DNA of 38,676 bases from a virus. This document shows positions 3,457-38,676 of the stretch, in pieces. A program made the position numbers and the translations under genes. The DNA lies in IMG/VR virus record IMGVR_UViG_3300029573_000020, positions 1-38,676 of that record; one strand, given 5' to 3'. The notes below the pieces were generated by a model. That model did not search any database. It saw only the letters and a list, made by a program, of their open reading frames with translations, and had not been told where the DNA came from. Every line of letters begins with the position of its first letter. The stretch's first letter is position 1.

Positions 3457-3469
3457 TTTTTCACCTCTC

Positions 3470-4852
3470 TTAATAGTTGACGCGCATCGGTTTAGGCCTT
3501 GCCACCTCCACGATGTCCTCACATACGCCTGTCAAAGCATCCGGAGCATCATCGTGTGTGTTCTTGCCTTCCTTCTGGTACTTGCTCAGTGCTGCATAAA
3601 ACTCCGGCCAGCGGTTCTTCCAATCGCTTGGGAAATAAATATGCTCCATGCACCACGTAGCATTAGACAAGATTCTTGCAGCCTTGTTCTTATGCTGCGT
3701 AAAGGTTTCAATGGTTGTATGGTTGCTATGCAGCAGCTTCTTCACGTTCCTGGCAAATCCACGCCCGCCATTGTTGCTTTCAAAGCGTGCCACATTCGTG
3801 CTGTTGCGTTCCAGTGCCATTGCCGTTGCCGGTTCAGTATCCTCCATGGGTGCCTTTGTGTATAAAACGTCAAGCACATACGCTTCATCCGCGAACGTGC
3901 GCCCATAGATAATGCAGCAAAGGTAATCGGCACCGGTATCAGCAGTATCGGTATAAGCACGAATCTGCTTGAAGGCAGGCAGCGCGCCGTCATAGGTCTT
4001 GAAGCTGCTGTACAGCCTGCCTTTGATATCAATCGGCTCCTGCTGGTAGTTGGCGCTCCATATGTCAAGCCCCATAAGCTGCTTCTTCTCCATGCAGCTT
4101 TCAGCATCCAGCACGCCATCACACAGCATGCTGCCGTCATCCTGCACTGCCTTCATGTTGATATGCACGATTTTTTCTGCCGGATAATATTCCAGCACCT
4201 TGCCTGCCAAATCATCACTAGCCCAACGCGTCATAATGACGATGATTTTATAATTGCCCTCGCCACGTGACAGCATGGTATTGGTGAACCAGTCCCAGTG
4301 CTTTTCTTTGACATTTTCGTTATAGGCTTCTTCCGCATTCTTGATTAAATCGTCTATGATCATCAGCCTGCAGCCAAAGCCTGTCGCTGTACCGGTTGGC
4401 GATGTAGCAAGGTAACTTGTCTGCTGTCCTTCGAGGCTCCACAGGTTCATAGCGCCGTCGCCACGCTTAATTTTGGTAGCGGGGAATACATCACTATAGA
4501 CCGGCTTATAAACATCCGCCTTGGCCTCACTGATGCTGTCACGCACGTTCTTGCTGAAGCGCGTCGACAGAGTTTCATTATAAGAGCCAATCATAACCTG
4601 CAAGGTGTTATCCCTGCCCAGCGCCCATTCCACGAAGTTGCTGGCCGTATAACTCTTGCCATGACGCGGAGGCATGTTCAGTACAAGTATCTTCTTATCT
4701 GAGGTCAAGAACCATTGCAAGGTATCGCACAGCTCCTGCAGATACTTGCGGTCACTCCGGTAGAAGTCGGGGTTCTTCAGCTGGGCGTAAAAAAAGAACC
4801 TGCGTCTTGCAAGTTCTATCTTTGCTCCCAATGTTATAAGCTGCTTATCCAT
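3470..4852 (-). CDS. terL: Terminase large subunit
   Basis: 460 aa. Walker A-like motif LNMPPRHGKS. A C-terminal nuclease-like region is present. The gene follows the TerS candidate with an 8-nt overlap. Confidence 0.9.
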   Translation of the reverse strand: MDKQLITLGAKIELARRRFFFYAQLKNPDFYRSDRKYLQELCDTLQWFLTSDKKILVLNMPPRHGKSYTASNFVEWALGRDNTLQVMIGSYNETLSTRFSKNVRDSISEAKADVYKPVYSDVFPATKIKRGDGAMNLWSLEGQQTSYLATSPTGTATGFGCRLMIIDDLIKNAEEAYNENVKEKHWDWFTNTMLSRGEGNYKIIVIMTRWASDDLAGKVLEYYPAEKIVHINMKAVQDDGSMLCDGVLDAESCMEKKQLMGLDIWSANYQQEPIDIKGRLYSSFKTYDGALPAFKQIRAYTDTADTGADYLCCIIYGRTFADEAYVLDVLYTKAPMEDTEPATAMALERNSTNVARFESNNGGRGFARNVKKLLHSNHTTIETFTQHKNKAARILSNATWCMEHIYFPSDWKNRWPEFYAALSKYQKEGKNTHDDAPDALTGVCEDIVEVARPKPMRVNY

Positions 4853-5201
4853 CCATACCAGCCAGCTTTTTCAGTTCTGCATCCGTCAGCCCTGCGAACG
4901 GATTAGAAAGCTCACCGGAGATTTCCACATTTTCTTTAGGCTTCAGGCCTACAGTATCACGATAAATTTCAAACGCCCTGATGTTGCCACGCTTGGCCTT
5001 CAGCTTCAGTGCATCCAGCATCTCCTTACGCTCATCGTCGGTCGTGAAGTCAGCGTCCAGCTCGCGGAACGACTTCAAGCGGCGGCGTGCTTCACCGGAT
5101 GCCTGCCCGCCTTTTTTGCCATTTCTCGCCGCTTCCTCGCCGCTTCGAAACCTTGTGGCTTTTCCATTCTTCAAATTATCCAGTTGTTTCTTTGTAGGCA
5201 T
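4845..5201 (-). CDS. terS: Terminase small subunit (putative)
   Basis: ~118-aa basic protein immediately upstream of and overlapping terL. ATG at 5201. Confidence 0.55.
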   Translation of the reverse strand: MPTKKQLDNLKNGKATRFRSGEEAARNGKKGGQASGEARRRLKSFRELDADFTTDDERKEMLDALKLKAKRGNIRAFEIYRDTVGLKPKENVEISGELSNPFAGLTDAELKKLAGMDG

Positions 5202-5790: not shown

Positions 5791-5877
5791 TGGTGCGTAG
5801 GGCTGGAATTGCACCAGCGTTGTATCTTACGTCACGGATTTACAGTCCGCTGCCTTCGCTACTCGGCTCACCTACGC
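5791..5877 (-). tRNA. tRNA-Tyr (anticodon GTA), type II with a long variable arm and slightly non-canonical features
   Basis: Minus-strand sequence GCGTAGG-TGA-GCC-GAGTAGCGAA-GGC-A-GCGGA-CTGTAAA-TCCGT-GACGTAAGATACAAC-GCTGG-TGCAATT-CCAGC-CCTACGC-A-CCA. It has a 7-bp acceptor stem, U33, the GUA anticodon, A37, a G53-C61 pair, an encoded CCA end and a CCGAG D-loop motif like bacterial tRNA-Tyr. Position 55 is G instead of U, and the D stem has a bulge. Confidence 0.55.
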
Positions 5878-14930: not shown

Positions 14931-15694
14931 CACGCCCCGCAAAACTTGTTGATAAAGTACTGCTGGCCTTTGCCGGTAACCTTAGTGGTTTTGCTGACGC
15001 TGACGTGGCCGTCACTGTGGGAAATAGCCGTTTCTTTAATCTTGAACAAGCCCATTTCCATAGCTCTCTGCGTGGGGCTGTTGTAATCTGCTCCGGCACG
15101 CTTAATCAGGTATCCTTGCTCACGCATCCAGTTAAACAAGCGCTTCTGACCAATCGGATGGCCGTTCTGCTTCAGAATCTTCGCAAGGTCACCGATCAGA
15201 ATCGTGCTGTCAGACGCGCTCACCGCATCTGCAAAGAGTACCTTCGGCTTCGCCGCCTGCAAGCTGGCTTCCGCCTGTTGGCGAGCTGCTCTTTCCTCTT
15301 TTAAAGTTGTCGCCAGCTTTATAATCGTGTCCGGGTCAGTTAGTGCCTGCTCAATTTTATCGGCCGTCAGATATCCACCGTGTTTTCTGATTGCCGGAAG
15401 CACCTCGCTGGTCACCCATTCTTGAAAAGCTTCTGCCTTATCGGTTTTCGCTCTCATTACCAAACTGTAAAGTCCGGCTTCATCAATAATTGTAGTTTCT
15501 TGTTTACCTCCAGGGGTGTCCAAAACAGACATACCTTTATGGTTATCTTTTACGTGTTCTCTGACAGCCTTAGCTGTTTGACTGTAACCTAATGCTTGGG
15601 CTACATCCTTACCAACAAACCACGGCTCACCATTTTGCTGAATGGTACGAATCTGACCAAAGTCAGGACTGTTGAAAATTTTAATGTTATTCAC
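14930..15694 (-). CDS. Phage antirepressor (Bro-N + KilA-C/ANT domains)
   Basis: N-terminal IRTIQQNGEPWFVGKDVAQALGY (Bro-N). C-terminal LIGDLAKILKQNGHPIGQKRLFNWMREQGYL (KilA-C). Confidence 0.8.
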   Translation of the reverse strand: MNNIKIFNSPDFGQIRTIQQNGEPWFVGKDVAQALGYSQTAKAVREHVKDNHKGMSVLDTPGGKQETTIIDEAGLYSLVMRAKTDKAEAFQEWVTSEVLPAIRKHGGYLTADKIEQALTDPDTIIKLATTLKEERAARQQAEASLQAAKPKVLFADAVSASDSTILIGDLAKILKQNGHPIGQKRLFNWMREQGYLIKRAGADYNSPTQRAMEMGLFKIKETAISHSDGHVSVSKTTKVTGKGQQYFINKFCGA

Positions 15695-15728
15695 TTGGCA
15701 CCTCTTTTCTTAAACGCCGTCTGTTTTT

Positions 15729-15747
15729 TGTAGACTATTTGTCTACA
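15729..15747. promoter_or_regulatory. Operator copy O2 (TGTAGACT-ATT-TGTCTACA), between the cro-like gene and the antirepressor gene
   Basis: Near-identical to O1. It overlaps the cro-like stop codon and lies 35 bp upstream of the antirepressor start. Confidence 0.55.
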
Positions 15748-15956
15748 TCACAGGCAAAAAAAATTGCTTCTTTTTCACTTAATTTAGAAATTCTAAGCAA
15801 ATCGCACATTTTAGAGATTTCACCAGCGTTGAACGGGACCTCATTGTTAATTTTTCTTTTTAATGTTTGATATGTAACTTTAAGTTCCGCTGCAATTCTG
15901 GCTTTTTTCAATCCGCTATCTGCAATAGCTTTTTCTAATTTGACTGTATCTGTCAC
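15735..15956 (-). CDS. Cro-like XRE-family HTH regulator
   Basis: LKKARIAAELKVTYQTLKRKINNEVPFNAGEISKMCDLL helix-turn-helix. Divergent from the repressor gene. GTG start with GGGAGG RBS. Confidence 0.65.
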   Translation of the reverse strand: MTDTVKLEKAIADSGLKKARIAAELKVTYQTLKRKINNEVPFNAGEISKMCDLLRISKLSEKEAIFFACDVDK

Positions 15957-15972
15957 GTTATCGCCTCCCTTT

Positions 15973-15991
15973 TGTAGACATTTTGTCTACA
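15973..15991. promoter_or_regulatory. Operator O1, the 8-3-8 palindrome TGTAGACA-TTT-TGTCTACA
   Basis: Perfect inverted repeat. It lies between the -10 of the leftward promoter and the cro-like RBS. Confidence 0.65.
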
Positions 15992-15996
15992 TCACT

Positions 15997-16025
15997 ATTA
16001 TATTTCTTTGTTTCCTGTTTGTCAA
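15997..16025 (-). promoter_or_regulatory. Leftward early promoter (PR-like). -35 TTGACA, 17-bp spacer, -10 TATAAT.
   Basis: On the minus strand TTGACA is 16025..16020 and TATAAT is 16002..15997. Both are consensus sigma-70 hexamers with a 17-bp spacer. Confidence 0.7.
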
Positions 16026-16044
16026 CAAAATTTTAGTGATTTTG

Positions 16045-16073
16045 TTGCATTTTTTTCTACACGATGTTACAAT
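16045..16073 (+). promoter_or_regulatory. Rightward repressor promoter (PRM-like). -35 TTGCAT, 17 bp, -10 TACAAT.
   Basis: TTGCAT 16045..16050 and TACAAT 16068..16073. A GTCTACA-like half-site (ttctacac) lies in the spacer. Upstream of RBS AAGGAGAG. Confidence 0.5.
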
Positions 16074-16102
16074 AAATTTAAACAAAAAGGAGAGTGAACA
16101 CA

Positions 16103-16552
16103 ATGACCACTATAGGAGACCGTATAAAAGCACGTAGATTAGAATTAGATATGTCGCAAGATGAATTAGCAAGATTAGTTGGATATAAATCGCGTTCATC
16201 TATCAATAAAATTGAAAGTGACGGCAGATTGCTACCCCAAAGAAAAATTATGGAAATTGCAAATGCGCTTAATACAACGCCAGCATATATTATGGGATGG
16301 GAAGAATCTAACGAAACCGAAGCTCCCTCCGTCCCCCTCACCCCCCGCGATGAACGCCAAATCGCCGCAGACCTCGAAAAAATGCTTGCCGACCTCGACA
16401 GCAAAAACTCTATGGCTGCCATGGGCGGTACCGTTGAAGATGATGAAGACAGAGAACTCCTGAAAGCAAGCCTGCAGGCTACCATGCGACTGGCAAAGAA
16501 AATCGCCAAAGAAAAATACACTCCTAAAAAATATCGCCACGAAGAGGAATAA
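16103..16552 (+). CDS. Phage repressor, XRE-family HTH (ImmR-like). No S24 peptidase domain.
   Basis: MTTIGDRIKARRLELDMSQDELARLVGYKSRSSINKIE HTH_XRE. Acidic C-terminal half. Followed directly by an ImmA-like gene. Confidence 0.8.
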   Translation: MTTIGDRIKARRLELDMSQDELARLVGYKSRSSINKIESDGRLLPQRKIMEIANALNTTPAYIMGWEESNETEAPSVPLTPRDERQIAADLEKMLADLDSKNSMAAMGGTVEDDEDRELLKASLQATMRLAKKIAKEKYTPKKYRHEEE

Positions 16553-16556
16553 TATC

Positions 16557-16976
16557 ATGGATATCAAGGCTGCTGTGAAGCAGCTTACACATAAGCACAA
16601 AACAAATAACCCCTATGAGCTGGCGCAGCTGCTGAACATCATCGTCATGTACGCAGAGCTTGGCAGCACATGGGGCTACTACACTACATATAAGCGTTCC
16701 AAGTTTATCATCATTAACCAGAACATATCCGAAGAATTGCAAGCATACACCTGCGCCCATGAGCTTGGGCACAGTGTTTTACATAAAGGCGTATCGACGC
16801 CATTCCTCAAAGCCCATACCCTTTTCAGCATAGAGAAAATAGAACGGCAGGCCAACACCTTCGCCGTGGAACTGCTCCTGCCGGATGAGCTGCTGCAGCA
16901 GTACCCGGAAACTTCCATTCACCGCCTTGCTGACATGGTAGGCGTGCCGATGGGGCTGGAAGTGCTTAAGAGGTAA
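16557..16976 (+). CDS. ImmA/IrrE-family HExxH metallopeptidase (antirepressor protease)
   Basis: AHELGHSVLH zinc-binding motif. Its position immediately downstream of the repressor matches the ImmR/ImmA arrangement. Confidence 0.75.
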   Translation: MDIKAAVKQLTHKHKTNNPYELAQLLNIIVMYAELGSTWGYYTTYKRSKFIIINQNISEELQAYTCAHELGHSVLHKGVSTPFLKAHTLFSIEKIERQANTFAVELLLPDELLQQYPETSIHRLADMVGVPMGLEVLKR

Positions 16977-16998
16977 AAAGGAACTTGGTAAAAACAGC

Positions 16999-17064
16999 CT
17001 TTTTTACCAAAGACGTCAGGTGTCTTTTGGAAAACGTGCCTTTTTTACCAAAGACGTTAGGCAT
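16999..17064. repeat. Two direct copies of GCCTTTTTTACCAAAGACGT(C/T)AGG
   Basis: Copies at 16999..17024 and 17038..17063 (26 bp, one mismatch). Non-coding, between immA and the first terminator hairpin. Confidence 0.6.
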
Positions 17065-17094
17065 AAAAAAAGACCGCCAGCGGAAGGCTGACGG
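17063..17094 (-). terminator. Minus-strand intrinsic terminator T3, embedded in 48-bp repeat copy A
   Basis: Minus-strand RNA CCGUCAGC-CUUCC-GCUGGCGG forms an 8-bp stem (the plus-strand mismatch becomes a G·U pair) followed by UCUUUUUUUAUG. Confidence 0.55.
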
Positions 17095-17201
17095 CAAGGA
17101 AGAAATTGACGATTTGATTGATGTTAAGCTGGCCAAGCTCCAGCGCAAGGCTGACGGTGGGGAGTTTAGGATAATAGATTTCGAAAGCGAGGAATGAAGA
17201 C

Positions 17202-17996
17202 ATGAAAGATGTAAAATTGTTTCAGAGTGCGCAAATTCGCTCCATTTGGAACGATGAAGCCGGAGAATGGTTCTTTTCTGTTGTCGATGTTGTCGGTGCA
17301 TTGACCGACAGTGCAGATAAATCAGCTTATTGGCGCAAACTAAAGCAAAGAATGAAGGTAGAAGGTAATGAAACCGTGACAAATTGTCACAGGTTGAAAT
17401 TGCTTGCAGAAGACGGGAAAATGCGTCTCACTGACACCGCAAATACAGAAGGTATTCTGCGTATTATCCAATCTGTCCCCTCACCTAAAGCCGAACCATT
17501 CAAGCAGTGGCTCGCGCAACTCGGTGCGGACCATATCCACGACCTTGAAGCAGCAGAAGCCTTCAACAAAGAAATAGACGCTCGCATTGAAGCACGAAAT
17601 AATATCAAACAGCATAACATTGCTCTCGCTGATGCAGCCTTTGCCGCAGGCGTAAAAACGAACCTTGACTTCGCCAAATTTCAAAATAGCGGTTACATGG
17701 GACTTTATGGCGGTGAAACCGCTGGCGATATAAAACGTCGCAAGAAACTTAAACCTAATCAAGAGATTTTAGACCACATGGGCAGTGTGGAACTCGGTGC
17801 GAACCTGTTCCGCATTACGCAGGCAGAAGACAAACTGCGCCGTGAGAATATCAGTAGCAAAGAAGCTGCCAACAAAGTGCATTACGAAGTCGGTCGTACC
17901 GTTCGCAAAACTATTGAAGAACTCGGCGGCACAATGCCAGAGAAATTGCCTACGCCAAGCGAAAGTATTAAGCAGCTCGATAAACCTAAAAAATAA
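17202..17996 (+). CDS. dinD: DinD-like (DNA-damage-inducible protein D family) protein with an N-terminal Bro-N domain
   Basis: N-terminal IRSIWNDEAGEWFFSVVDVVGALTDS (Bro-N). The C-terminal half (QNSGYMGLYGGETAGDIKRRKKLKPNQEILDHMGSVELGANLFRITQAEDKLRRENISSKEAANKVHYEVGRTVRKTIEELGGTMPEKLPTPSESIKQL) closely resembles E. coli DinD as I recall it. Confidence 0.7.
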   Translation: MKDVKLFQSAQIRSIWNDEAGEWFFSVVDVVGALTDSADKSAYWRKLKQRMKVEGNETVTNCHRLKLLAEDGKMRLTDTANTEGILRIIQSVPSPKAEPFKQWLAQLGADHIHDLEAAEAFNKEIDARIEARNNIKQHNIALADAAFAAGVKTNLDFAKFQNSGYMGLYGGETAGDIKRRKKLKPNQEILDHMGSVELGANLFRITQAEDKLRRENISSKEAANKVHYEVGRTVRKTIEELGGTMPEKLPTPSESIKQLDKPKK

Positions 17997-18023
17997 AAAA
18001 GACCGCCAGCGGAAGGCTGACGG
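17988..18023 (-). terminator. Minus-strand intrinsic terminator T2, in 48-bp repeat copy B. Begins at the DinD stop codon.
   Basis: Same hairpin as T3 (CCGCCAGC-GGAAG-GCTGACGG on plus). Followed on the minus strand by UCUUUUUUAUUUUUU. Confidence 0.55.
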
Positions 18024-18136
18024 CAGGGAAGATATTGACGATATTATAGCTGATACCTTTATTGCGTAAAGGTATCTTGTAAACACCTTTAAATTCTCTC
18101 TTTTTTTAAAGGTATCACGGAGATAGCTTTATGGCA

Positions 18137-18167
18137 TAAAAAAGACCGCCAGCTTTTCAGCTGGCGG
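18137..18167 (-). terminator. Minus-strand intrinsic terminator T1, downstream of the moron operon
   Basis: Perfect hairpin CCGCCAGC-UUUUCA-GCUGGCGG on plus. The minus-strand RNA is followed by UCUUUUUUAUG. It shares the ggcataaaaaagaccgccagc prefix with copy A. Confidence 0.65.
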
Positions 18168-18182
18168 AAAAATGTTGCTTCA

Positions 18183-18593
18183 CTATATTCTGCTTTTTAA
18201 AAAAGATGCTCCAATAGAGCCTACCGCAAGGAAACAGGCTCCACCTGCCACCCAAGGTTGACCTAAATATAGAGCGTAGGCAGCTACTCCGATAATGCAC
18301 ACTCCTAAGATAAACGCCATGTACTGACCTCGTTTATCACGCATAGCAGTCAAATCGAGTTCTTTGGCTTTTAATTCTCTTATAGCTTTTGCATTTTCCT
18401 TAAAATCGTTAATGATATCAGATGCTGAACCAGGAACAATGTTATCATATTCCGCTAAAATCTGAGGATGGGGAAGCAATCCTTCAAAATGTTCCGCAAC
18501 AACAATATCACCATTAGATGCAACTCTATTTCTAACTGATTTGTCGTCCTTTGCCGGTTTCGATTGTGCCAATTCTCTTTCCCACCTTATCAA
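18183..18593 (-). CDS. Membrane protein, DUF2335-like (putative). Moron.
   Basis: LPHPQILAEYDNIVPGSASDIINDFKENAKAIRELKAKELDL then two C-terminal TM helices. The start codon is uncertain (TTG; AAGGTGGG RBS upstream of an internal TTG). Confidence 0.45.
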   Translation of the reverse strand: MIRWERELAQSKPAKDDKSVRNRVASNGDIVVAEHFEGLLPHPQILAEYDNIVPGSASDIINDFKENAKAIRELKAKELDLTAMRDKRGQYMAFILGVCIIGVAAYALYLGQPWVAGGACFLAVGSIGASFLKSRI

Positions 18594-18759
18594 TAGATTT
18601 TCTCAAAGAACTGCCCGTCCTTAACCATGCAGCTTTTGAAATTGTACTAGGACTTTGAGGGACAAAATCTGCATAATTAGTATTAGGCATAATGGTAAAA
18701 GTAGAAAAGCCGCACATTACAGAGGCAATAAGCGCTTTAATTTTTGCCAATTTGTACAC
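18532..18759 (-). CDS. Small hypothetical protein overlapping the 5' end of the DUF2335-like gene
   Basis: AAGGAGGTG RBS, then GTG/TTG. Hydrophobic N-terminus. Coding status uncertain. Confidence 0.3.
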   Translation of the reverse strand: MYKLAKIKALIASVMCGFSTFTIMPNTNYADFVPQSPSTISKAAWLRTGSSLRKSIDKVGKRIGTIETGKGRQIS

Positions 18760-18784
18760 CTCCTTAATTATGTTGCACTTGTAT

Positions 18785-18815
18785 ATTGTACCACATTAGG
18801 AAAAACAACTCAATA
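18785..18815 (-). promoter_or_regulatory. Candidate promoter of the moron operon (extended -10 TGG-TACAAT)
   Basis: Minus-strand TGGTACAAT at 18793..18785, with a weak TTGAGT -35 at 17-bp spacing. Confidence 0.35.
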
Positions 18816-19052
18816 TAACTGTGCCCTTGTACACTTAATTTTAACATTTTTCGTTTTAAAAGTAAATTACCATAAGTAAATTTTACAAAGGGTCTGATTT
18901 TAATGTAAAAATCCCCCGGTGCTACCAACACCGAGGGACCTGCAAGAACGTGTTACCAGCACGCTCAACGTCATCAACCCCCGAACCACCAAGAGCTGAT
19001 TACTTTTTTATTATATCAGCTCTGCTCGTAAAATGAAAGGAGCTGATTTTTT

Positions 19053-20327
19053 ATGTCAACATTAAACGTAACAAAACGCGGCGATAAATGGCAGTACCGT
19101 TTCGAAACTGCTTCCGTCGACGGCAAGCGTAAGCGTGTTTCCAAATCCGGCTTTAAAACGAAAAAGGAAGCCGTGGAAGCCGGAACCAGGGCGCTGGCAG
19201 AATACAACGAAAGCGGTCAGACTTTCAATCTTTCCAGCATTTCCGTTGCGGATTATCTGGACAGTTGGATTGATACTTACTGCAAAATGAACCTAAAATA
19301 TAATACCCAGCTTGGCTATCTTTATACTATCGAAAATCATCTGAAGCCCAGCCTTGGTATGTATAGGCTGAAATCTCTTACACCCTCCGCCATTCAGGAA
19401 TTCGTAAATGCTCTGAAGCTGCGTGGTCTCAGCAGGGCAAGCATCGTCGGTATATTCTCCACGCTCTCTGCAGCGCTGGATTATGCTATTGAGCCGTTGA
19501 AGTACATCCAGTATAATCCATGCAATAACGTAAGAATCCCCAAGGATACGGCAGCCAAGAAGGAAACCCGGTACATCATAACACCGGAGCAGTTTAAGCA
19601 GATTTTAGAGCGCTTTCCGGAAGGCTCTAATTTTTATATTCCGCTTATGATCGGCTACTACACCGGCGTAAGAATTTCCGAATGCTTCGGCCTTACTTGG
19701 AATGATGTCGATTTTGATAATAAGACCATAAGTATCAGCAAGGCTTTGCTTAAGCGCAACTGTGGCGCAGATGTAAGGGAAATCCTGAAGAAGAAGGGCA
19801 AGAAGGAAGAGAAAAGCGCCTGGTATTTCAACAGCACAAAAACTTTCAAGTCCAACCGCATCATCAACATCGGTGATACACTCTGTGCTGCATTGAAAAA
19901 AGCTTATGACCGGCAAATGGCCAACAAAGCCTTCTATGACGAATACTACACAAAAATCTACAAAAAGCCGGAGCAGGACGAAAAAGGCGATACCATTTAC
20001 CGGCTCATAGAAATTGAAGCCGGAGTGCCCTGCCCTCTTGAGTCCGTGGATATGATAAACGTAAGGGAGAACGGCCAGCTGCTGAGTATGGACAGCATGA
20101 AGTATTGCAGCCGTGCAATCCACTATGAGCTGAAGATAAATTTCAACTACCATTCACTGCGGCATACACACGCTACAACGCTTATCGAGAACGGTGCCAA
20201 TATAAAGGACGTGCAGGAGCGTTTAGGACACTGCAACATAGAAACAACACTTAATACATATACCCACAATACCGACTACCTGAGAAATCAATCAGTAGAA
20301 ATCTTTGAAAAGGCGGTTCAAAAATAA
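19053..20327 (+). CDS. int: Tyrosine site-specific integrase
   Basis: C-terminal catalytic pattern …NYHSLRHTHATTLIENGANIKDVQERLGHCNIETTLNTYTH (R…HxxR…Y). AAAGGAG RBS. Confidence 0.95.
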   Translation: MSTLNVTKRGDKWQYRFETASVDGKRKRVSKSGFKTKKEAVEAGTRALAEYNESGQTFNLSSISVADYLDSWIDTYCKMNLKYNTQLGYLYTIENHLKPSLGMYRLKSLTPSAIQEFVNALKLRGLSRASIVGIFSTLSAALDYAIEPLKYIQYNPCNNVRIPKDTAAKKETRYIITPEQFKQILERFPEGSNFYIPLMIGYYTGVRISECFGLTWNDVDFDNKTISISKALLKRNCGADVREILKKKGKKEEKSAWYFNSTKTFKSNRIINIGDTLCAALKKAYDRQMANKAFYDEYYTKIYKKPEQDEKGDTIYRLIEIEAGVPCPLESVDMINVRENGQLLSMDSMKYCSRAIHYELKINFNYHSLRHTHATTLIENGANIKDVQERLGHCNIETTLNTYTHNTDYLRNQSVEIFEKAVQK

Positions 20328-20336
20328 ACAAAAAAA

Positions 20337-20381
20337 GGCGCCCAGACAGCAAATGATTGTTGTCTGAGCGCTTTGTTTTTT
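20337..20381 (+). terminator. Intrinsic terminator after int
   Basis: GGCGCCCAGACAGCAA-atga-TTGTTGTCTGAGCGC stem, then TTTGTTTTTTG. An A-run precedes it, so it may act in both directions. Confidence 0.65.
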
Positions 20382-20389
20382 GCTATTAA

Positions 20390-20800
20390 ATTGTGGCCAT
20401 CTAAAATTTTCGGCCACACGAGGGCCACAAATTACAGTTTTTCACCCTTCCGAAACCCTTAAAATGCCGTATTCATGCGGTTTAACAGCACCACAGTTTC
20501 AGCGGTTCGCCGTCTCCAATCACGCTTCGCTCACGCTCGCATTCTTGGACGGCTATCGCATGGCGCGCACCAACTGCTCACCGCGTCGCTCAGCTCCTTG
20601 TGAGCAGGGTGACGCACTCAACATGGCTCGTCAATAGAACTAGCTTCATCATAGGTATTTTACAGCCATAAGATTTCATTTATATTAGTTGAAAACTGCC
20701 TTAAATAAGGGATTGAAGCAACTAAGCTACATCTATTGTAATTAAATCGCTTTAGGGTACATTTTGTCAGCGGACACAAAACGGCCACAATGTACCCATT
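20390..20800. other. Candidate attP region: GGCCACA(A/C) arm-type repeats flanking a GC-rich ~200-bp island (20440..20640)
   Basis: Non-coding convergent junction between the int 3' end and the end of the lysis operon. Copies: TGTGGCCA 20392..20399 (inverted), GGCCACAC 20412..20419, GGCCACAA 20423..20430, GGACACAA 20772..20779, GGCCACAA 20783..20790. Confidence 0.45.
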
Positions 20801-20887
20801 GTTCAAGCTATTCAAATCGAACATTACTTAATAAGCTATTAATAATAAATTCGACGTTCCCTTGTTTTTTCCTGCCCCGGCTTTTTG

Positions 20888-21292
20888 TTACAGCTTTTCC
20901 TTGACTAAAACTACAACTACACCGCCGGCAATAATCTGCCAAAGCAGCCGCTGTCTTTTAACGCGCTTCTCCTCGCGCGCGGATGCCTGCAAGTATTTGT
21001 TGGCACTCTCCAATAAGCTGCTCTGAGCTTGCAGCTCTATCTGCAGCTTTATTGATTCCGTCTTGAGCTTGCTCAATTCCGCTCTCGACTCTTTCAGCGC
21101 TGCTTGTGATTCTGCCAGCGCTTGTCTGCTGGCTCTTGTTTGCTCTAATAGCAGATTCAAGCGACTGTCGAGCGCTGTCATCTCCGTTGCAGTCATCGTG
21201 TAGGTTGTAGCCGATGACGCCGCCGATGCAGAGGCAGACAACAGCAAGCACAATGTAGCTGCAGTAATTGCGCAATATTGTTTTAAGCACAT
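20888..21292 (-). CDS. XhlA-like lysis-associated coiled-coil membrane protein (134 aa)
   Basis: ATG 21292 overlaps the M15 peptidase stop (TAAGATG) with a GGGAGGG RBS. Sequence is MCLKQYCAITAATLCLLLSASASA…(coiled coil LNLLLEQTRASRQALAESQAALKESRAELSKLKTESIKLQIELQ)…RLLWQIIAGGVVVVLV with a C-terminal TM. Confidence 0.5.
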   Translation of the reverse strand: MCLKQYCAITAATLCLLLSASASAASSATTYTMTATEMTALDSRLNLLLEQTRASRQALAESQAALKESRAELSKLKTESIKLQIELQAQSSLLESANKYLQASAREEKRVKRQRLLWQIIAGGVVVVLVKEKL

Positions 21293-21293
21293 C

Positions 21294-21662
21294 TTAGCCC
21301 TCCCAAGTAAAGTATCCTGGAACGGAACCACCCTCGCGCATATCCACATGCACAAAACCGCTGTCAACGTAGGTGCCCACGCCATCGAAAATCTGCTTGC
21401 AGATATTGGCCAGCTCACGCACGCCCATGCCATCAACATAGATATCTGCAGCAGTGCCTTTGACATGCTGGCTGTTCCAGACGCCGCCCACAGCGCGATT
21501 ATGATCCGGACAACGATAGCCGCTGCTGATGTTAATCGGTCTGCCGATGCGCAGGCGCAGGTGCTCCAGTCCCAACAGGAATGCCATGCTGATACCGGTC
21601 GTAGGCAGCATGCCACAGCAACGGCATGCAAATTCAGCTTCAGAAAAATGTTCAGTTAACAT
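21294..21662 (-). CDS. Peptidase M15 family zinc peptidase (endolysin)
   Basis: FSEAEFACRCCG…SGYRCPDHNRAVGGVWNSQHVKGTAADI pattern of the Peptidase_M15_3 / L-Ala-D-Glu peptidase family. Confidence 0.75.
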   Translation of the reverse strand: MLTEHFSEAEFACRCCGMLPTTGISMAFLLGLEHLRLRIGRPINISSGYRCPDHNRAVGGVWNSQHVKGTAADIYVDGMGVRELANICKQIFDGVGTYVDSGFVHVDMREGGSVPGYFTWEG

Positions 21663-21667
21663 AGTAA

Positions 21668-22177
21668 TCAGCCCTTTCTCTTTTTAATGATAGCTGCCAG
21701 TTCCCCGACGGCCTCAATGCCTGCATCACTCAAATTCTCACAAATCGACAGCAGCTCCGTGATGACCAAGTATCCAGCCACCAAAGGAACGGCCCACACA
21801 GGCTGATGCAGCGTAATCATCGCCAAATCTACAAGCACGGCAGCAAGCACGCAGAGGATGTACACTATGACCTTGCCAACAAAGCGATGCTTCATCACTT
21901 CCGAGGAAATCAATCCTTCCGCACGCGCCGCCTCAATGCCGCCTATAATCTGCATCACAGACGGAGTTTGCCCCATGCCCTGCAGGCGCTTGTAAGACAG
22001 GCTCATCCAGCGAGTGAAGCAGTCCAAAAATACCAACGCGGTAAAAACCATAAACAACACCGCGTGTTTGTGCAGCAAGACGGCCAAAATAGCACCAATA
22101 ACCGATTTATAAGTAAAACCATGAGTCAAAGTGTGTGCCGCGTTATATACGGCGTAGCGCAAAGCTAAAAAATCCAT
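21668..22177 (-). CDS. Holin (putative; multi-TM)
   Basis: 169 aa with three or four hydrophobic helices. Directly upstream of the endolysin. TTAGGAGG RBS. Confidence 0.6.
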   Translation of the reverse strand: MDFLALRYAVYNAAHTLTHGFTYKSVIGAILAVLLHKHAVLFMVFTALVFLDCFTRWMSLSYKRLQGMGQTPSVMQIIGGIEAARAEGLISSEVMKHRFVGKVIVYILCVLAAVLVDLAMITLHQPVWAVPLVAGYLVITELLSICENLSDAGIEAVGELAAIIKKRKG

Positions 22178-26362: not shown

Positions 26363-26610
26363 AATATCCTATACCCGGTATCATCTATGCGCAAAATTGG
26401 ATATTCGTTATTACTGGGTTTGTATACCGGAGATACGTTACTGAGGATTATGTACCACAGCTTATTATTCGGATATCCTATGCCAGCGCTTGTGATTTCT
26501 CCGCTGCCTTGCAGAGTTGCTTGTCCTATTGTTCTTGTGATATTGCTGTTAGTATCTAATTTCACACTTCCGTCTGCGTTGTTTATTACTAAACCTTGAG
26601 CCATTACCAT
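26317..26610 (-). CDS. Hypothetical protein (97 aa) in an AT-rich cassette. Overlaps the next ORF by 46 bp.
   Basis: The start overlaps the stop of the gpJ-like gene. Fibre-like N-terminus MAQGLVINNADGSVKLDTNSNITRTIGQ. Confidence 0.35.
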   Translation of the reverse strand: MVMAQGLVINNADGSVKLDTNSNITRTIGQATLQGSGEITSAGIGYPNNKLWYIILSNVSPVYKPSNNEYPILRIDDTGYRIFWKNQLGTKIRYGII

Positions 26611-29600
26611 ACCCCCATTTTTACCCGAAGCACATTATTGCTGTCATATACTTCAATCAAGTTGTCTTTTATTTCCGTTCTTGCTCCGCTAGTTGCTGTA
26701 CGTAATGTACCGATAGTCGCGCAGATAGCTGACAGGCTATCTACCGCCATTTTATCAGCGCTGATGCTGCCTGCAAGCATATTGTTTGTAATCACATTGC
26801 CGTCAATCTGCGTATCACCTGTAACATGGACGTATTTGCCGTCAAGCAGGATTGTGCCGTCGGCGATGTTGATTTTTGTGATAATATCATTGCCGTCAAG
26901 GTCGATATTTTTCACCGCAAGGCTGATGGCATCCTGAGTTTGCTGTATAGTACTGTATGATTCTAATTTTTTATCAGTCGCATTATTCAGCTTAACAACC
27001 ATGTTGCTGATTGCCGTGTTGGTCTGCTCAATTGTACTGTAACCGCTCAGTTTTCCGTCAGTATAGCTTGCTACCTGCGAGCTGATGAGTGCTTCAGTCT
27101 GCTTAGTAGTACTGTATTGGCTGAGCGTGTCATTTTTAAAATTAGCAATGCTGCTGCTAATCATGCCAGATGTCTGCTCGGTCGTGCTGTATTTGCTGAG
27201 CGTACCGTCCCTAAAATCAGCAATGCCACTGCTAATCATGGCAGCTGTCTGCTTAGTAGTGCTGTACTGACTAAGCGTGTCATTTTTAAAATTAGCAATG
27301 CTGCTGCTAATCATGTTGGCTGTCTGCTCTGTGGTACTGTAATTACCCATGCTGCTTGCAACACGTGTAGCAATAAGTGTTTCTGTCTGTGTGGTCGTGC
27401 TGTAATCCTTAGCTAATTTGTCAGCGGTAATCTTACTGCTGTTCAGCGCTGCATTAGCGTCAGCTAAAGCGTTATTGCTATTTTGTAACGCAGTGTTTGC
27501 GTTGGCCGTAGCGTTGGCAATGTTGTTTTTTATAGTCGCATCGAGCTTATCGGCGGCAATGCTTCCTGCCTCTATCAGCCCTGCGTCAATCGTTGCTTTC
27601 ACGGTTACTGTTTCGCTGCCGCTGTATCTGCCGTCACCGAAATAATTGTAATAGCAAGCCTTGACCTCATAAACGCCAGCATCGAGAGATTTATAATAGC
27701 TCAGGTTCGCTGTTTTATCGTCGCTGTCATTCGTCGCTCCGTCAAAGTACCAATGCACGCCGATACAATTATTCGGAATGCTATCTAACACGCGACATTC
27801 AATGCCCTGCATTTTTGCCTTGACGCTGATTTTCGGTGCTGTCGGCGTTGCGAAATTGTATGCTGCTGTTGCTGGGGCGCTGACCTTGCCGTAGGCTGAC
27901 ACAGCAAAAACGTAAATCGTGCCGTAACGTGCGGTTATAGCGTTTGTTGTATAGCTGTTATCTGCCGTGCGTGCGATAAAATTAGCGTTATCAACACCAA
28001 CGTTAGCATCTAGCCTGATTTCGTAATATTTTATATCGGCGTTGTGCACCTCGTCCCATTTGATTACAACAGCATCTTTTAAAGTGATGCTGAGGTTTGC
28101 CGGCGCTGTTGGTGTTGCTGTGCTGATTGCAACTAAAATATTTGTCTGTGCCGATGCGTCGGGTGTCTCGACATTACCAAAAATATCCTGCGTACATACA
28201 GCGATTTGATATCTCTTGCCGATATCCACCTGCGGCAATGTAGCTGATTTGTAGCCGCTGCCGCCGTATCGCCACGCTTCGCCGTATTGTCTGTACCATA
28301 CCTGCGCTTGCTGATAATTATCAAAATCAGCTGGCGACCACTCAACGATAATATCATGATAGACAATCTTGCCACCGACATCACGATATTTATTATAAGC
28401 TGTTACGTCTGTACAATTCGGCAGGTCAGACACAGCAGCGACGCAGCTGTAACAATCAACGTCAGCCAGGTTTTGCCCGTTCGCCTTAAATTCGTTAAAT
28501 GCAGGGAATTTAAAATACAGCGTTCTGCCGATATGCTGTTTGGTAAGCGGGACAACGTATATACCGCCGTCCAAAACGGCAACATCCTCGCCGTAGCTAT
28601 GCGCCTTTGCCGTTGTGCCGTACTGACCACGTATCAGCCCTGTGAGCTGATACAGATTGCTGTTTAACAGCGTTGCACGTGTATAGCTCATGCATTCGCC
28701 GTTTATCCAAATCAGTGTATTACCGTTGGCTGCATCCTGTGCGCTGCCTGTCAGCAGCTCAACGGGGCGCTGATTATTTAAGCGGATATATGCGCTCGTT
28801 GCATCAGCCGTCATTGTTCCCGCTGTTGTGCCGTAGATGCTGTTGATGCCCTGTGTGCCGATATTGCTGTAATCGCCGTCCTTATCGCTGACAAAAACAT
28901 TGCAGCCGCCCCACGTCTTGGCAGCGCCTTGCAATGCTATCCATAATTCGCAGCCGCTTGCGCTTGTCACGAGGTCGGACGGCGGAATGATAAACAATGG
29001 ACGCGCTGTATTGCCAGGTTCTACGTTAAAATCTTGGTATTGGTAATCATTGACAACGGTGTATTTTGCTTCGCTGTACGCTCCGGGCGCTCTCTGTACA
29101 GCTGTTACAGTGAGGATACCGGTTTTCGCCTCGGTAATCTCACTGACCATTACCACCTGTCCGGCAATGCCAATCGCCTCATCAGTGATACGCAGCAAAT
29201 CACCCGGCTCCAACCTGCAATATTTCCACGGCAGCCTAAACGTATATTGATTGCATTCCGTCTGTGCGATGCGTGTTTTCATTTGTGCGTATTTCAGCGC
29301 TCGTTCTTTTGTGTGATACCATTTAGCATCATAGGTAACGCTTCGCACGCCGTATTTTTTGATGCTGTCAAGGTCTTGATAGCTGACCGATTCTTCCTCG
29401 TAATCGTTGGCGCGGTTTAAAAAATTTACAGTAATGTAATTATAAATTTCCGTGCTGTCCTTACGTTTAACGATTACAGGCGAGCCGCTTTGCGGAATAA
29501 AATCATCAGCCGTCAGATCATACATAATCTGTGTGTTTGGCGACCATTCGGCGCGTTGAACATCGTCGCGTACAGCGAATTTAAAACGGTCTACGCTCCA

Positions 29601-30332
29601 ATACATATATGTATTGGTAAGCTCCAGCAGATTAGCAATAATTGTTTGAGCTTTATCCTGCCTGCTGAATGCATCGTTTGGCGTGCTGATAAGCAAATCA
29701 GCATTGCTGCAATATTTGGCGTAATCTGCAAAACTCGCCTCGTCGATGTATGAGCCTAAGCCGATTTTACTCAATATGTCCTTAATGACATAAGCGGGAT
29801 TTGCATCGGTGTTATCGGCAATCAATGTGCCGCGGACCTCAAAGCTATATGACGGCATTGAGGCATTATCCTCGCCTAAAAAAATCCTGCCATACAGATA
29901 CGCTAAATTATCATAGCCTGTTGCGATGTCAGCATGATTTGTGCTCATGTAGGTTGTCGGCTGGCTGTTATCGCCCTTGTTGAGCGCCAATCCTGCACCC
30001 TCGTTATTGGTGTTGGCGTTCAATGCGCCTAAGCCTGCGTAGGCTGTATCGCCCACCCACACTTTATTGATACCGCTTATCACGCCCTCGCCCAACGCAA
30101 GCTCAGCATAAACATAATACAGATATGTTATGGTGGTGCTTTTTGATTTGCCGCTTTTCTGCGTAGTGCGTTTTTCTTTCGTTTCAAAATCCTGATAACA
30201 CATCAGGTTCGGCGACACCTTACACGTGCCGTACAACAGCGGCACGGGTGTGCCAAACTCACAGACGGTGCTTTGGAAAGCGTCTATTTTTTGCGAGCGG
30301 CTCGTAAATTTCGTACCTTTAAAAAGTCCCAT
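26604..30332 (-). CDS. Central tail / host-specificity protein (gpJ-like Phage-tail_3 N-region + FN3 domain + repeat shaft + C-terminal domain)
   Basis: 1242 aa. TTGGAGGT RBS. FN3-like PTAPANLSITLKDAVVIKWDEV…YEIRL. Seven YSTTEQT-type ~20-aa repeats. It follows the NlpC/P60 gene as in lambda K→J. Confidence 0.7.
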   Translation of the reverse strand: MGLFKGTKFTSRSQKIDAFQSTVCEFGTPVPLLYGTCKVSPNLMCYQDFETKEKRTTQKSGKSKSTTITYLYYVYAELALGEGVISGINKVWVGDTAYAGLGALNANTNNEGAGLALNKGDNSQPTTYMSTNHADIATGYDNLAYLYGRIFLGEDNASMPSYSFEVRGTLIADNTDANPAYVIKDILSKIGLGSYIDEASFADYAKYCSNADLLISTPNDAFSRQDKAQTIIANLLELTNTYMYWSVDRFKFAVRDDVQRAEWSPNTQIMYDLTADDFIPQSGSPVIVKRKDSTEIYNYITVNFLNRANDYEEESVSYQDLDSIKKYGVRSVTYDAKWYHTKERALKYAQMKTRIAQTECNQYTFRLPWKYCRLEPGDLLRITDEAIGIAGQVVMVSEITEAKTGILTVTAVQRAPGAYSEAKYTVVNDYQYQDFNVEPGNTARPLFIIPPSDLVTSASGCELWIALQGAAKTWGGCNVFVSDKDGDYSNIGTQGINSIYGTTAGTMTADATSAYIRLNNQRPVELLTGSAQDAANGNTLIWINGECMSYTRATLLNSNLYQLTGLIRGQYGTTAKAHSYGEDVAVLDGGIYVVPLTKQHIGRTLYFKFPAFNEFKANGQNLADVDCYSCVAAVSDLPNCTDVTAYNKYRDVGGKIVYHDIIVEWSPADFDNYQQAQVWYRQYGEAWRYGGSGYKSATLPQVDIGKRYQIAVCTQDIFGNVETPDASAQTNILVAISTATPTAPANLSITLKDAVVIKWDEVHNADIKYYEIRLDANVGVDNANFIARTADNSYTTNAITARYGTIYVFAVSAYGKVSAPATAAYNFATPTAPKISVKAKMQGIECRVLDSIPNNCIGVHWYFDGATNDSDDKTANLSYYKSLDAGVYEVKACYYNYFGDGRYSGSETVTVKATIDAGLIEAGSIAADKLDATIKNNIANATANANTALQNSNNALADANAALNSSKITADKLAKDYSTTTQTETLIATRVASSMGNYSTTEQTANMISSSIANFKNDTLSQYSTTKQTAAMISSGIADFRDGTLSKYSTTEQTSGMISSSIANFKNDTLSQYSTTKQTEALISSQVASYTDGKLSGYSTIEQTNTAISNMVVKLNNATDKKLESYSTIQQTQDAISLAVKNIDLDGNDIITKINIADGTILLDGKYVHVTGDTQIDGNVITNNMLAGSISADKMAVDSLSAICATIGTLRTATSGARTEIKDNLIEVYDSNNVLRVKMGVW
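26850..27430. repeat. Imperfect tandem coding repeats (~60-bp unit, 120-bp higher-order) inside the gpJ-like gene
   Basis: ctgcttagtagt(a/g)ctgta(t/c)tg(g/a)ctgagcgtgtcatttttaaaattagcaatgctgctgctaatcatg recurs at ~27098 and ~27248. Encodes the YSTTEQTxxMISSSIANFKNDTLSQ repeats. Confidence 0.8.
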
Positions 30333-38121: not shown

Positions 38122-38676
38122 TTAAGAATTAAAGCCACTGAGGAACGGATCATCAGAACCGCTGCCACCGCCATTGCTGCCGCCACCGCCTGCACCGTTG
38201 GCCTTAACTGCCCAGCTGTTCTCCTTCAGCCAGCCGTTAACGCCGTCTTCCAGGCTGATTTCTTTGCCGTCGCTGCCGGTATAGGCAAGGCTTTCATCGT
38301 CTTTGACAACGATACTGCCTTCCAGCAGCTTAGCCATGTTCTGCGGACTCGCAGCATTGCCCTTGGTCAGCAGCTCTACAGCCTTAGCCATCTTCATGCC
38401 GTCAAGACGCTTAGTCTTTTCAGCTTTGGCGGTCTCAGTCATATCAGCCAGCTGCTTAGTGACCTTGCCAACCTGCGCGGTTAAGTCAGCAATCTGCTTT
38501 GCGACCTCATCAGGCTTTTTGCCGCCCTGGGCAAATTGGTCTAATGTAGTCTTAAGTCCTTTGGCTTTGTCTACCACATCGTCACCATCGACCAAACCAA
38601 CAGCCTCCAAGATGCTTTTCAGCTTTGTCGCACTCTGCTCTCCTGCCGTGCGGTGCTTCTTAGCCTCGTTGTTGAG
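38122..38676 (-). CDS. Phage scaffolding protein, C-terminal part (continues from 161..1 across the junction)
   Basis: Helical, charged protein …ADLTAQVGKVTKQLADMTETAKAEKTKRLDGMKMAKAVELL… with a Gly-rich tail. Sits between the MuF/immunity cassette and the capsid gene. Confidence 0.7.
   Translation of the reverse strand, partial: LNNEAKKHRTAGEQSATKLKSILEAVGLVDGDDVVDKAKGLKTTLDQFAQGGKKPDEVAKQIADLTAQVGKVTKQLADMTETAKAEKTKRLDGMKMAKAVELLTKGNAASPQNMAKLLEGSIVVKDDESLAYTGSDGKEISLEDGVNGWLKENSWAVKANGAGGGGSNGGGSGSDDPFLSGFNS

Follow-up and report, generated by a model that had tools for sequence, protein, structure and literature searches.

Gene context of the attachment region

The DNA analyzed here (the window) is a stretch of 38,676 nucleotides from a viral record. 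In it, an attachment (att) region sits between the 3' end of an integrase gene (int, plus strand) and the last gene of a minus-strand lysis cluster (Table 1). In Pfam searches, the integrase scored 95.1 bits for PF00589 (cut-off 27.1) and 51 bits for PF14659, and its residues 12-53 matched PF14657 (Arm-DNA-bind_4) with 35 bits against a cut-off of 22.3. On the basis of these domains, the product of int is predicted to be an arm-dependent tyrosine recombinase with a separate N-terminal arm-type DNA-binding domain. Relatives of this integrase are encoded at 16 IMG/VR loci, with 97-98% identity in 8 IMG/VR contigs. Positions 18900-21300 were compared by blastn with 50,697 GenBank phage records, and no match to a known phage was obtained.

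Table 1. Features of the integrase-lysis junction in the window
Feature	Position	Strand	Remarks
Tyrosine integrase, 424 aa	19053-20327	+	N-terminal arm-binding domain (Pfam)
Terminator hairpin and T-run at int 3' end	20339-20381		Inverted repeat GCGCCCAGACAGCAA / TTGTTGTCTGAGCGC, then T-run
P arm (R')	20339-20500		162 bp; two copies in lysogens, one beside int at attL and one left over beyond attR and the island
Arm-type site GGCCACA, inverted, P arm	20392-20398	-	Exact copy; identical in L009; altered in remnant copies L034 and L040
Arm-type site GGCCACA, P arm	20412-20418	+	Exact copy
Arm-type site GGCCACA, P arm	20423-20429	+	Exact copy, 11 bp from the preceding one
Phage-borne replacement rlmD 3' end	20459-20500	-	In frame, E-T-V-V-L-L-N-R-M-N-T-A-F-stop; contains core2 GAAACTGTGGTGCTG
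GC-rich island, host DNA	20501-20619	-	119 nt; native rlmD end and downstream DNA
Core (core1)	20618-20633		16 bp; common to attP and island-bearing attB; TGACGAGCCATGT(G/T)GA on minus strand
P' arm	20634-20905		Kept attached to the lysis genes in integrated relatives
Arm-type site variant GGACACA, P' arm	20772-20778	+	One mismatch
Arm-type site GGCCACA, P' arm	20783-20789	+	Exact copy, 11 bp from the GGACACA variant
Last lysis-cluster gene, 110 aa	20958-21290	-	Hypothetical
M15 endolysin	21294-21662	-	Lysis cluster
Holin	21668-22177	-	Lysis cluster
attP in rlmD sense			...TTCTAT TGACGAGCCATGTGGA AACTGTGGTGCTGCTAAACCGC...
attB in rlmD sense			...CCCGA TGACGAGCCATGTTGA GTGCGTCACC...

On the int side, the module starts at 18907 or 19036, where related phages break from each other; on the other side, phages with the same lysis genes and other integration modules diverge at ~20905-20925. 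Therefore, int and attP form a 2-kb exchangeable cassette. A host junction upstream of int (18880-19050) was considered and rejected: an integrated relative, L017, shows colinearity with the window over 15053-20500, and the breaks at 18907 and 19036 mark the boundaries of modules that differ between related phages.

A reading made earlier from the letters of the window (hereafter, the sequence-only reading) had described a GC-rich segment at 20440-20640 in a stretch with no credible ORF. The GC-rich block is real but narrower. GC content is 63.0% in 20501-20619 (hereafter, the island), 43.9% in 20337-20500 and 34.3% in 20637-20890, relative to 47.0% in the whole window, and 20440-20500 is not GC-rich. 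An ORF of 85 aa at 20380-20637 showed no Pfam match, in agreement with the sequence-only reading, and a coding island was rejected. A tRNA or tmRNA as the integration target was also rejected, as ARAGORN found none in the att region; elsewhere in the window, it found a phage tRNA-Tyr at 5791-5877, the sole tRNA/tmRNA of the window. At the gathering score, no Rfam family was detected in the att region. At relaxed E-values, RsaJ, trpB and SQ2397 appeared, all below threshold and all covering the int terminator hairpin.

Arm-type repeats flanking the core

The 38.7-kb window contains 5 copies of GGCCACA, relative to a chance expectation of 4.87, and 4 of them fall in the att region, at 20392-20789. 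In a placement simulation, clustering of 4 of 5 randomly placed sites within 400-554 bp had a probability of 2.5e-5 to 6.6e-5; for the att region alone, the Poisson probability of the GGCCACA count is 9e-7. Of the five GGCCACA-type copies that had been counted there from the letters, four are exact and clustered as described, whereas the one at 20772-20778 is the one-mismatch variant GGACACA. Direct pairs of sites are spaced by 11 bp in both the P arm and the P' arm.

All three P-arm sites are contained in a 44-nt block, AAATTGTGGCCATCTAAAATTTTCGGCCACAnGAnGGCCACAAAT (n, spacer positions). This block was intact, except for spacer changes at 20419 and 20422, in 5 of 5 integrase-linked copies compared with the window, including that of L009, a relative with 83% identity in the integrase and ~76% in the diverged flanks. 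Decayed chromosomal copies showed substitutions in the block (L034, L038, L040 and L041) or a deletion that removes its last bases (L043). Being intact beside an integrase gene and mutated in relics, the block suggests that the arm sites are under selection only where the integrase is present. The pair of sites in the P' arm was invariant in 8 of 8 distinct haplotypes covering it, weak evidence in that these sequences are all at least 94% identical. A diverged P' arm from an L009-type phage was not recovered, as a scan for the L009 att sequence matched its own contig only. We infer that the integrase recognizes the GGCCACA-type repeats through its N-terminal domain, the three at 20392-20429 in the P arm as well as the two at 20772-20789 in the P' arm.

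Integration into the 3' end of rlmD in Phascolarctobacterium succinatutens

When 185,579 species representatives were scanned with an invariant 49-nt piece of the island, 1 genome matched, a metagenome-assembled genome of Phascolarctobacterium succinatutens (L030). Its match lies at an unoccupied site, where L030:4509-4656 is 97.3% identical to positions 20486-20633 (148 bp) of the window. The gene at this site, rlmD (rumA), encodes a 23S rRNA (uracil-1939-C5)-methyltransferase (TIGR00479, 508.7 bits against a cut-off of 183.55). In L030, rlmD (3182-4552) ends in ...DMFPMTSHVECVTLLTRS-stop and is followed by 89 nt and then by core2, GAAACTGTGGTGCTGCT. The DNA past core2 (GACTAAAG...) reads as a second, unused ending (ETVVLLTKVQNEQYEK-stop), after which there is a GmrSD-like gene. 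In IMG/VR, a 25-nt invariant piece of the island was matched at the rlmD att locus only. The suggestion that the GC-rich piece might be the 3' end of a host gene, to be sought in candidate host genomes, was thus borne out by L030: in the island, positions 20590-20619 are the final 10 native codons of rlmD, E-C-V-T-L-L-T-R-S-stop, and positions 20501-20589 are 89 nt of DNA downstream of them. The dinucleotide TC at 20499-20500 recurs at 20618-20619, so the island boundaries can be shifted by 2 nt.

The host is P. succinatutens, and attB is the 3' end of rlmD. This family of gut phages is thereby assigned to a host species, with its integration site defined almost to the base.

Junctions of integrated relatives bounded the attachment site on both sides. 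On the int side, three lysogen sequences (L002 and L009 from IMG/VR, and L017) leave the window after 20500 and continue into rlmD on the opposite strand; in L017, an ENA scaffold, the integrase is exactly identical to that of the window. On the lysis side, the order is P' arm, core and island. The breaks at 20500 and at 20618-20633, with arm repeats flanking the crossover, upheld the proposal that an attP lies here. In anatomy and protein domains, the window family is predicted to have an arm-dependent lambda-type attP.

To place the crossover, four sites were compared: attB (L030), attL (L017), attR (L120) and attP (L006). All have TGACGAGCCATGT(G/T)GA in common. At 20620, the G/T polymorphism follows the host side in both attL and attR, which puts the crossover on its rlmD-5' side, within 20621-20633. 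This interval has the sequence ACATGGCTCGTCA and encodes M-T-S-H-V close to the end of host rlmD; strand exchange by the catalytic domains of the integrase would take place within it. The whole core falls in the codons M-T-S-H-V-E, 10 codons ahead of the native stop.

In two IMG/VR relatives with integrases 97-98% identical to that of the window (L004 and L006), 20500 is joined directly to 20620, without the 119 nt of 20501-20619. From these direct joins, the island is no part of the family attP; the true attP of the family is the window sequence minus 20501-20619. The sequence-only reading had taken the island as the attP core that matches attB. This did not hold: the shared segment is only the 16 bp of 20618-20633 beside the island, and in lysogens the island sits outside the prophage, just beyond attR.

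The phage supplies a new end for rlmD

Integration severs the last 10 native codons of rlmD, and an in-frame ending carried by the phage substitutes for them. In the rlmD frame, the phage side reads ETVVLLNRMNTAF-stop (20459-20500, minus strand). It includes core2, the right half of the ancestral att identity. The translations of attL (L017) and attP (L006) both read TSHVETVVLLNRMNTAF-stop. With an ending supplied in frame by the phage, rlmD therefore stays full-length in the lysogen: in L017, a 460-aa gene was called, with TRAM and methyltransferase domains, and L009 also retains an in-frame rlmD ending, as read from its sequence. The displaced native end persists at the distal junction, as the island follows P' and core in at least 10 lysogen contigs.

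Relic P arms beyond the island

Using the 110-aa lysis-side protein and patterns from the island, we collected lysis-side loci, which fell into three types. In type A (L020, L021, L024-L027 and L035-L037), the order lysis genes-P'-core1-island-core2 continues into native host DNA with the GmrSD-like gene. Type B (L029) has a different host ending and no island. In type C (L022, L023, L028, L039, L042, L120 and L121), the order lysis genes-P'-core1-island-core2 is followed by a complete copy of the P arm and terminator (20339-20500), and a 522-aa gene takes the place of int.

The junction between the island and a P arm was found in 6 metagenome contigs, none of which (0/6) continues into an integrase gene. 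Three are host contigs without an adjoining phage (L038, L040 and L041), in the order rlmD-core1-island-core2-P-arm copy; two are of type C; in the remaining one (L043), the P-arm copy is cut by an IS3-family element. In IMG/VR, no such junction was found beside int. The relic copies of the P arm part from the int-side copy between 20338 and 20339. Many strains of P. succinatutens therefore carry a relic P arm just past the island, in the preferred explanation the leftover of a prophage that is older and has decayed. Integration at the rlmD 3' end of this species is layered, and the hotspot contains stacked pseudo-ends, prophage relics, insertion-sequence copies and swappable defence genes.

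Both ends of one prophage were seen on a single scaffold of 201 kb, to which L017 (int side) and L120 (lysis side) belong. Its order is rlmD, attL without the island, P arm, int and, at the other end, lysis genes, P', core1, island, core2, relic P arm and the 522-aa gene. The prophage on it is ~38,477 bp long, relative to an expected 38,602 - 119 = 38,483 bp. The two P-arm copies (162 bp) differ at position 20471 only, with G beside int and A in the relic; the window has A.

Origin of the island junction in the window

The window has a terminal repeat of 74 bp (1-74 = 38603-38676) and closes into a circle of 38,602 bp, in which host DNA is joined to phage DNA on both sides, an arrangement seen in the window only. 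False circular viral contigs arise when both ends lie in a repeat longer than k, and the overlap then mimics a direct terminal repeat. A prophage flanked by two P-arm copies would lend itself to such an error: an assembly closing through the 162-bp repeat would yield a false circle of phage plus island.

Contigs from run ERR911958 (L018, L019 and L122) are 100% identical to the window. The MEGAHIT k=127 contig k127_36078 is recorded as 38,724 bp long; L018 corresponds to its final 5,413 bp, the part retrieved, and the 100% identity applies to this part. This contig ends at 20465 (= 20338+127), and a k=31 Logan contig from the same run ends at 20368 (= 20338+30). Both ends point to a branch at 20338/20339, exactly the point at which the P arm beside int and its relic copy part. 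A unitig bounded by this branch and by the SNP at 20471 has a predicted length of (38602-20344+1)+20465 = 38,724 bp, equal to the recorded length; the start of k127_36078 at 20344 (= 20471-127) was deduced from its length. The ends of such a unitig overlap by 122 bp, and closing it on the overlap gives a 38,602-bp circle with int, the P arm (A allele) and the island adjacent to each other, which is the unique length and the junction of the window. The k=127 unitig crosses the core unbroken, with no sign of excised phage DNA in that assembly. In a SPAdes contig (L121) that shares 99.98% identity with the window across 8.4 kb, the P arm is followed by the 522-aa gene instead of int.

The adjacency of int, P arm and island in the window is probably an artefact of circularization and less likely a rare recombinant. 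Taking the evidence jointly, we put a probability of roughly 0.68 on the following: 20339-20905 is the attachment region (attP) of a temperate phage of P. succinatutens, and the island junction originates from a false circle.

The chief alternative, which we consider unlikely, is that the circle is real. According to this alternative, homologous recombination between the 162-bp P-arm copies at attL and in the relic past attR looped out a phage genome that carries the island, as a miniature form of specialized transduction. The direct repeats that it requires do flank the prophage on one scaffold, and the window joins the relic allele (A at 20471) to int, as a recombinant would; however, closure of the unitig on its 122-bp overlap predicts the A allele and the length of 38,602 bp just as well. 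The contigs of ERR911958 end exactly where an integrated prophage with two P-arm copies predicts, and the absence of a break at the core in the k=127 unitig also argues against free circles. In IMG/VR and the metagenome collection, no other contig has the island beside an intact int. Lambda attP has spacing requirements; judged from these, an extra 119 bp between core and P arm would probably impair integration by the integrase.

Two observations keep the recombinant under consideration. The 74-bp terminal repeat lies in a structural gene, away from the P arm, so the window differs from the MEGAHIT unitig as assembled: it was re-cut once circularized, or a different assembler walked through the repeat, and the latter could mean that reads support the junction. 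The idea that the P-arm repeat gave rise to the 74-bp repeat at a different k was rejected: it needs k=103/104 (boundary at the 20471 SNP) or k=118/119 (clean 162-bp repeat), and the repeat would then fall in the P arm, not at 1-74. The second observation is the island/P-arm junction in host chromosomes, which indicates that a P arm was truly joined to the island at some time. A past phage carrying the island, or a past integration at the second half-site, must have existed to account for it. That the window itself represents such a phage, a real circle that gained 119 nt of host DNA in its attP when its own P arm recombined with the relic of an earlier prophage, we consider improbable. If true, it would be a natural snapshot of phages acquiring the 3' ends of target genes and would also show how relics in a hotspot reshape the att sites of incoming phages.

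With the false circle as the preferred origin of the junction, the window carries a practical warning: a circular, complete-looking contig can be a prophage closed through a repeat. What sets this case apart from other false circular contigs is the repeat, made up of an att arm and a decayed copy of it. Closure on such a relic puts the false join within the attachment site, where it mimics capture of host DNA in attP.

The island as a possible old insertion into attB

With the island taken out, core1 joins core2 in a 31-bp run that matches attP exactly. One host lineage (L029) runs straight through the insertion point (GTGGAAAC), with the first 19 bp of this stretch. From the continuity of the 31-bp run in attP and of its first 19 bp in L029, the island looks like an old insertion into an ancestral attB.

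We considered whether the island might be an integral part of a long common core of attP and attB, and hence of the functional attP, in the manner of phages with the 3' half of a tRNA gene. The 148 bp (97.3% identical) shared by the window and the unoccupied host site would agree with this, but the attP of close relatives (L004 and L006) and all three int-side lysogen junctions (L002, L009 and L017) lack the island, which lies on the host side of attR, with the crossover at 20621-20633. We regard a long common core as very improbable. There is just as little likelihood that the island is an independent functional element (small RNA, regulatory hairpin or miniature mobile element): its insertion-like interruption of the 31-bp stretch and an 8-bp inverted repeat within it (CTGCTCAC/GTGAGCAG) could be read this way, but it matches no Rfam family, folding z-scores of just -1.5 (plus strand) and -2.1 (minus strand) are not compelling, for which a structured RNA was rejected, and multiple genomic copies were not seen, the 25-nt piece being confined to a single locus in IMG/VR and the 49-nt piece to 1 of the 185,579 representatives.

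Comparison with known integration systems

The system is ordinary in kind, with a new host and a new integration site; its sole unusual feature, host DNA in attP, most likely comes from closure of the contig through a prophage relic. As in lambda Int and Tn916-type systems, the tyrosine recombinase has a distinct arm-binding domain at its N-terminus, a short core is flanked by repeated arm-type sites, and attP is just downstream of the int 3' end, here with a minimal span of ~280 bp (-116 to +162 from the crossover). The differences are an arm motif (GGCCACA) and a core sequence with no relation to those of lambda, and a target that is a protein-coding gene of a Negativicutes bacterium. Sites for Xis or bending proteins were not identified in the window, and arm binding is a prediction here.

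The element e14 integrates in the 3' end of icd of E. coli and supplies an in-frame ending, and the displaced native end is left at the far junction (PMC6379469). Integration in rlmD resembles that of e14 and phage 21 at icd in all three respects: the 3' end of a coding gene as the site, an ending supplied by the element and a displaced pseudo-3' fragment. The host and the gene are different; in rlmD, 10 native codons are replaced by 13 supplied by the phage, compared to 163 bp in icd, and the rlmD target carries several stacked pseudo-ends.

In Streptococcus and Clostridioides difficile, rumA is also an integration hotspot, there for integrative conjugative elements (ICEs), whose integration exchanges the 3' part of the gene; these ICEs use serine integrases, with the att site within the integrase gene, and the reading frame is changed (PMC4701971). 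The target family, 23S rRNA (uracil-5)-methyltransferase, and the exchange of the 3' part are common to both systems, whereas the phage of the window has a tyrosine integrase, arm sites and an intergenic attP, and the frame of the target gene is kept.

Layered 3' end of rlmD in the host

The 3' end of rlmD (rumA), at which the phage integrates in Phascolarctobacterium succinatutens, is layered in the host, as found in the attB region (4509-4700) of the unoccupied site L030. A run of 31 bp that is unbroken in attP is split in L030 by the native end of the gene (ECVTLLTRS-stop) plus 89 nt, downstream of which there is a second, unused rlmD ending (ETVVLLTKVQNEQYEK-stop). The 119-nt piece, the GC-rich island of host DNA, appears to have been inserted into attB long ago, and it shortens the identity between attP and attB from 31 to 16 bp.

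An in-frame replacement ending of rlmD (ETVCALNRIKP-stop) is also kept in L009 (7430-7470), a diverged relative whose integrase is 83% identical to that of the window, which is consistent with selection for an intact host gene. In L029, from another host lineage, the rlmD frame runs on beyond attR, the lysis-side junction, for about 100 more codons (4673-4960; ETVCLLSKLNTKQHIEVELNMDELDL...RYFGMI-stop). This long alternative C-terminal extension is possibly the leftover of another integrated element.

Decay of the relic P arm and variation downstream of rlmD

The relic P arm (the leftover chromosomal copy beyond the island) of some strains is interrupted within the int terminator by a sequence common to the contigs L034 (from about 13580 onward) and L043 (200-1103). 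In L043, a transposase gene of the IS3 family (rve-type) comes after this sequence, and the relic P arm bears a 32-bp deletion.

The DNA downstream of rlmD differs among strains (L030:4809-7527 versus L022:5267-8298 and the metagenome contig L038), and L038 returns to the L030 backbone at about L030:7479. Where L030 has a GmrSD-like gene and split RhuM-like genes, other strains encode a 522-aa protein without any family match, one of 117 aa and a nuclease of the Rpn family. The locus looks like a hotspot for defence or mobile elements.

Other features of the phage genome

Positions 1-74 of the window are repeated exactly at 38603-38676; through this 74-bp direct terminal repeat the window closes into a 38,602-bp circle. 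A structural (scaffold-like) gene, uninterrupted in scaffold L123, contains the cut point.

Features of the phage genome and of the host locus downstream of rlmD
Feature	Location	Strand	Basis or content
tRNA-Tyr (GTA) gene	window 5791-5877	-	Rfam tRNA, 51.2 bits
Lysogeny-side module adjoining int	window 14090-18593		gene calls made for L017, an identical locus
1242-aa tail gene	window 26604-30332		repeated units indicated at 27097-27341
GmrSD-like gene	L030:4809-7527 region		PADLOC HEC-06/Orf5
Split RhuM-like genes	L030:4809-7527 region		PDC-S05

According to the gene calls, the products of the lysogeny-side module are an HTH repressor accompanied by an M78 peptidase of the ImmA/IrrE type, two Bro-N proteins and a DUF2335 membrane protein. 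Window 20906-21236 makes up the greater part of the 110-aa ORF that ends the lysis cluster; because the relatives L044, L047 and L049 possess the P' arm and the endolysin without an equivalent of this segment, the ORF is dispensable or swappable. BLAST self-offsets indicated repeated units in the tail gene, about 150 bp apart and 88% identical.
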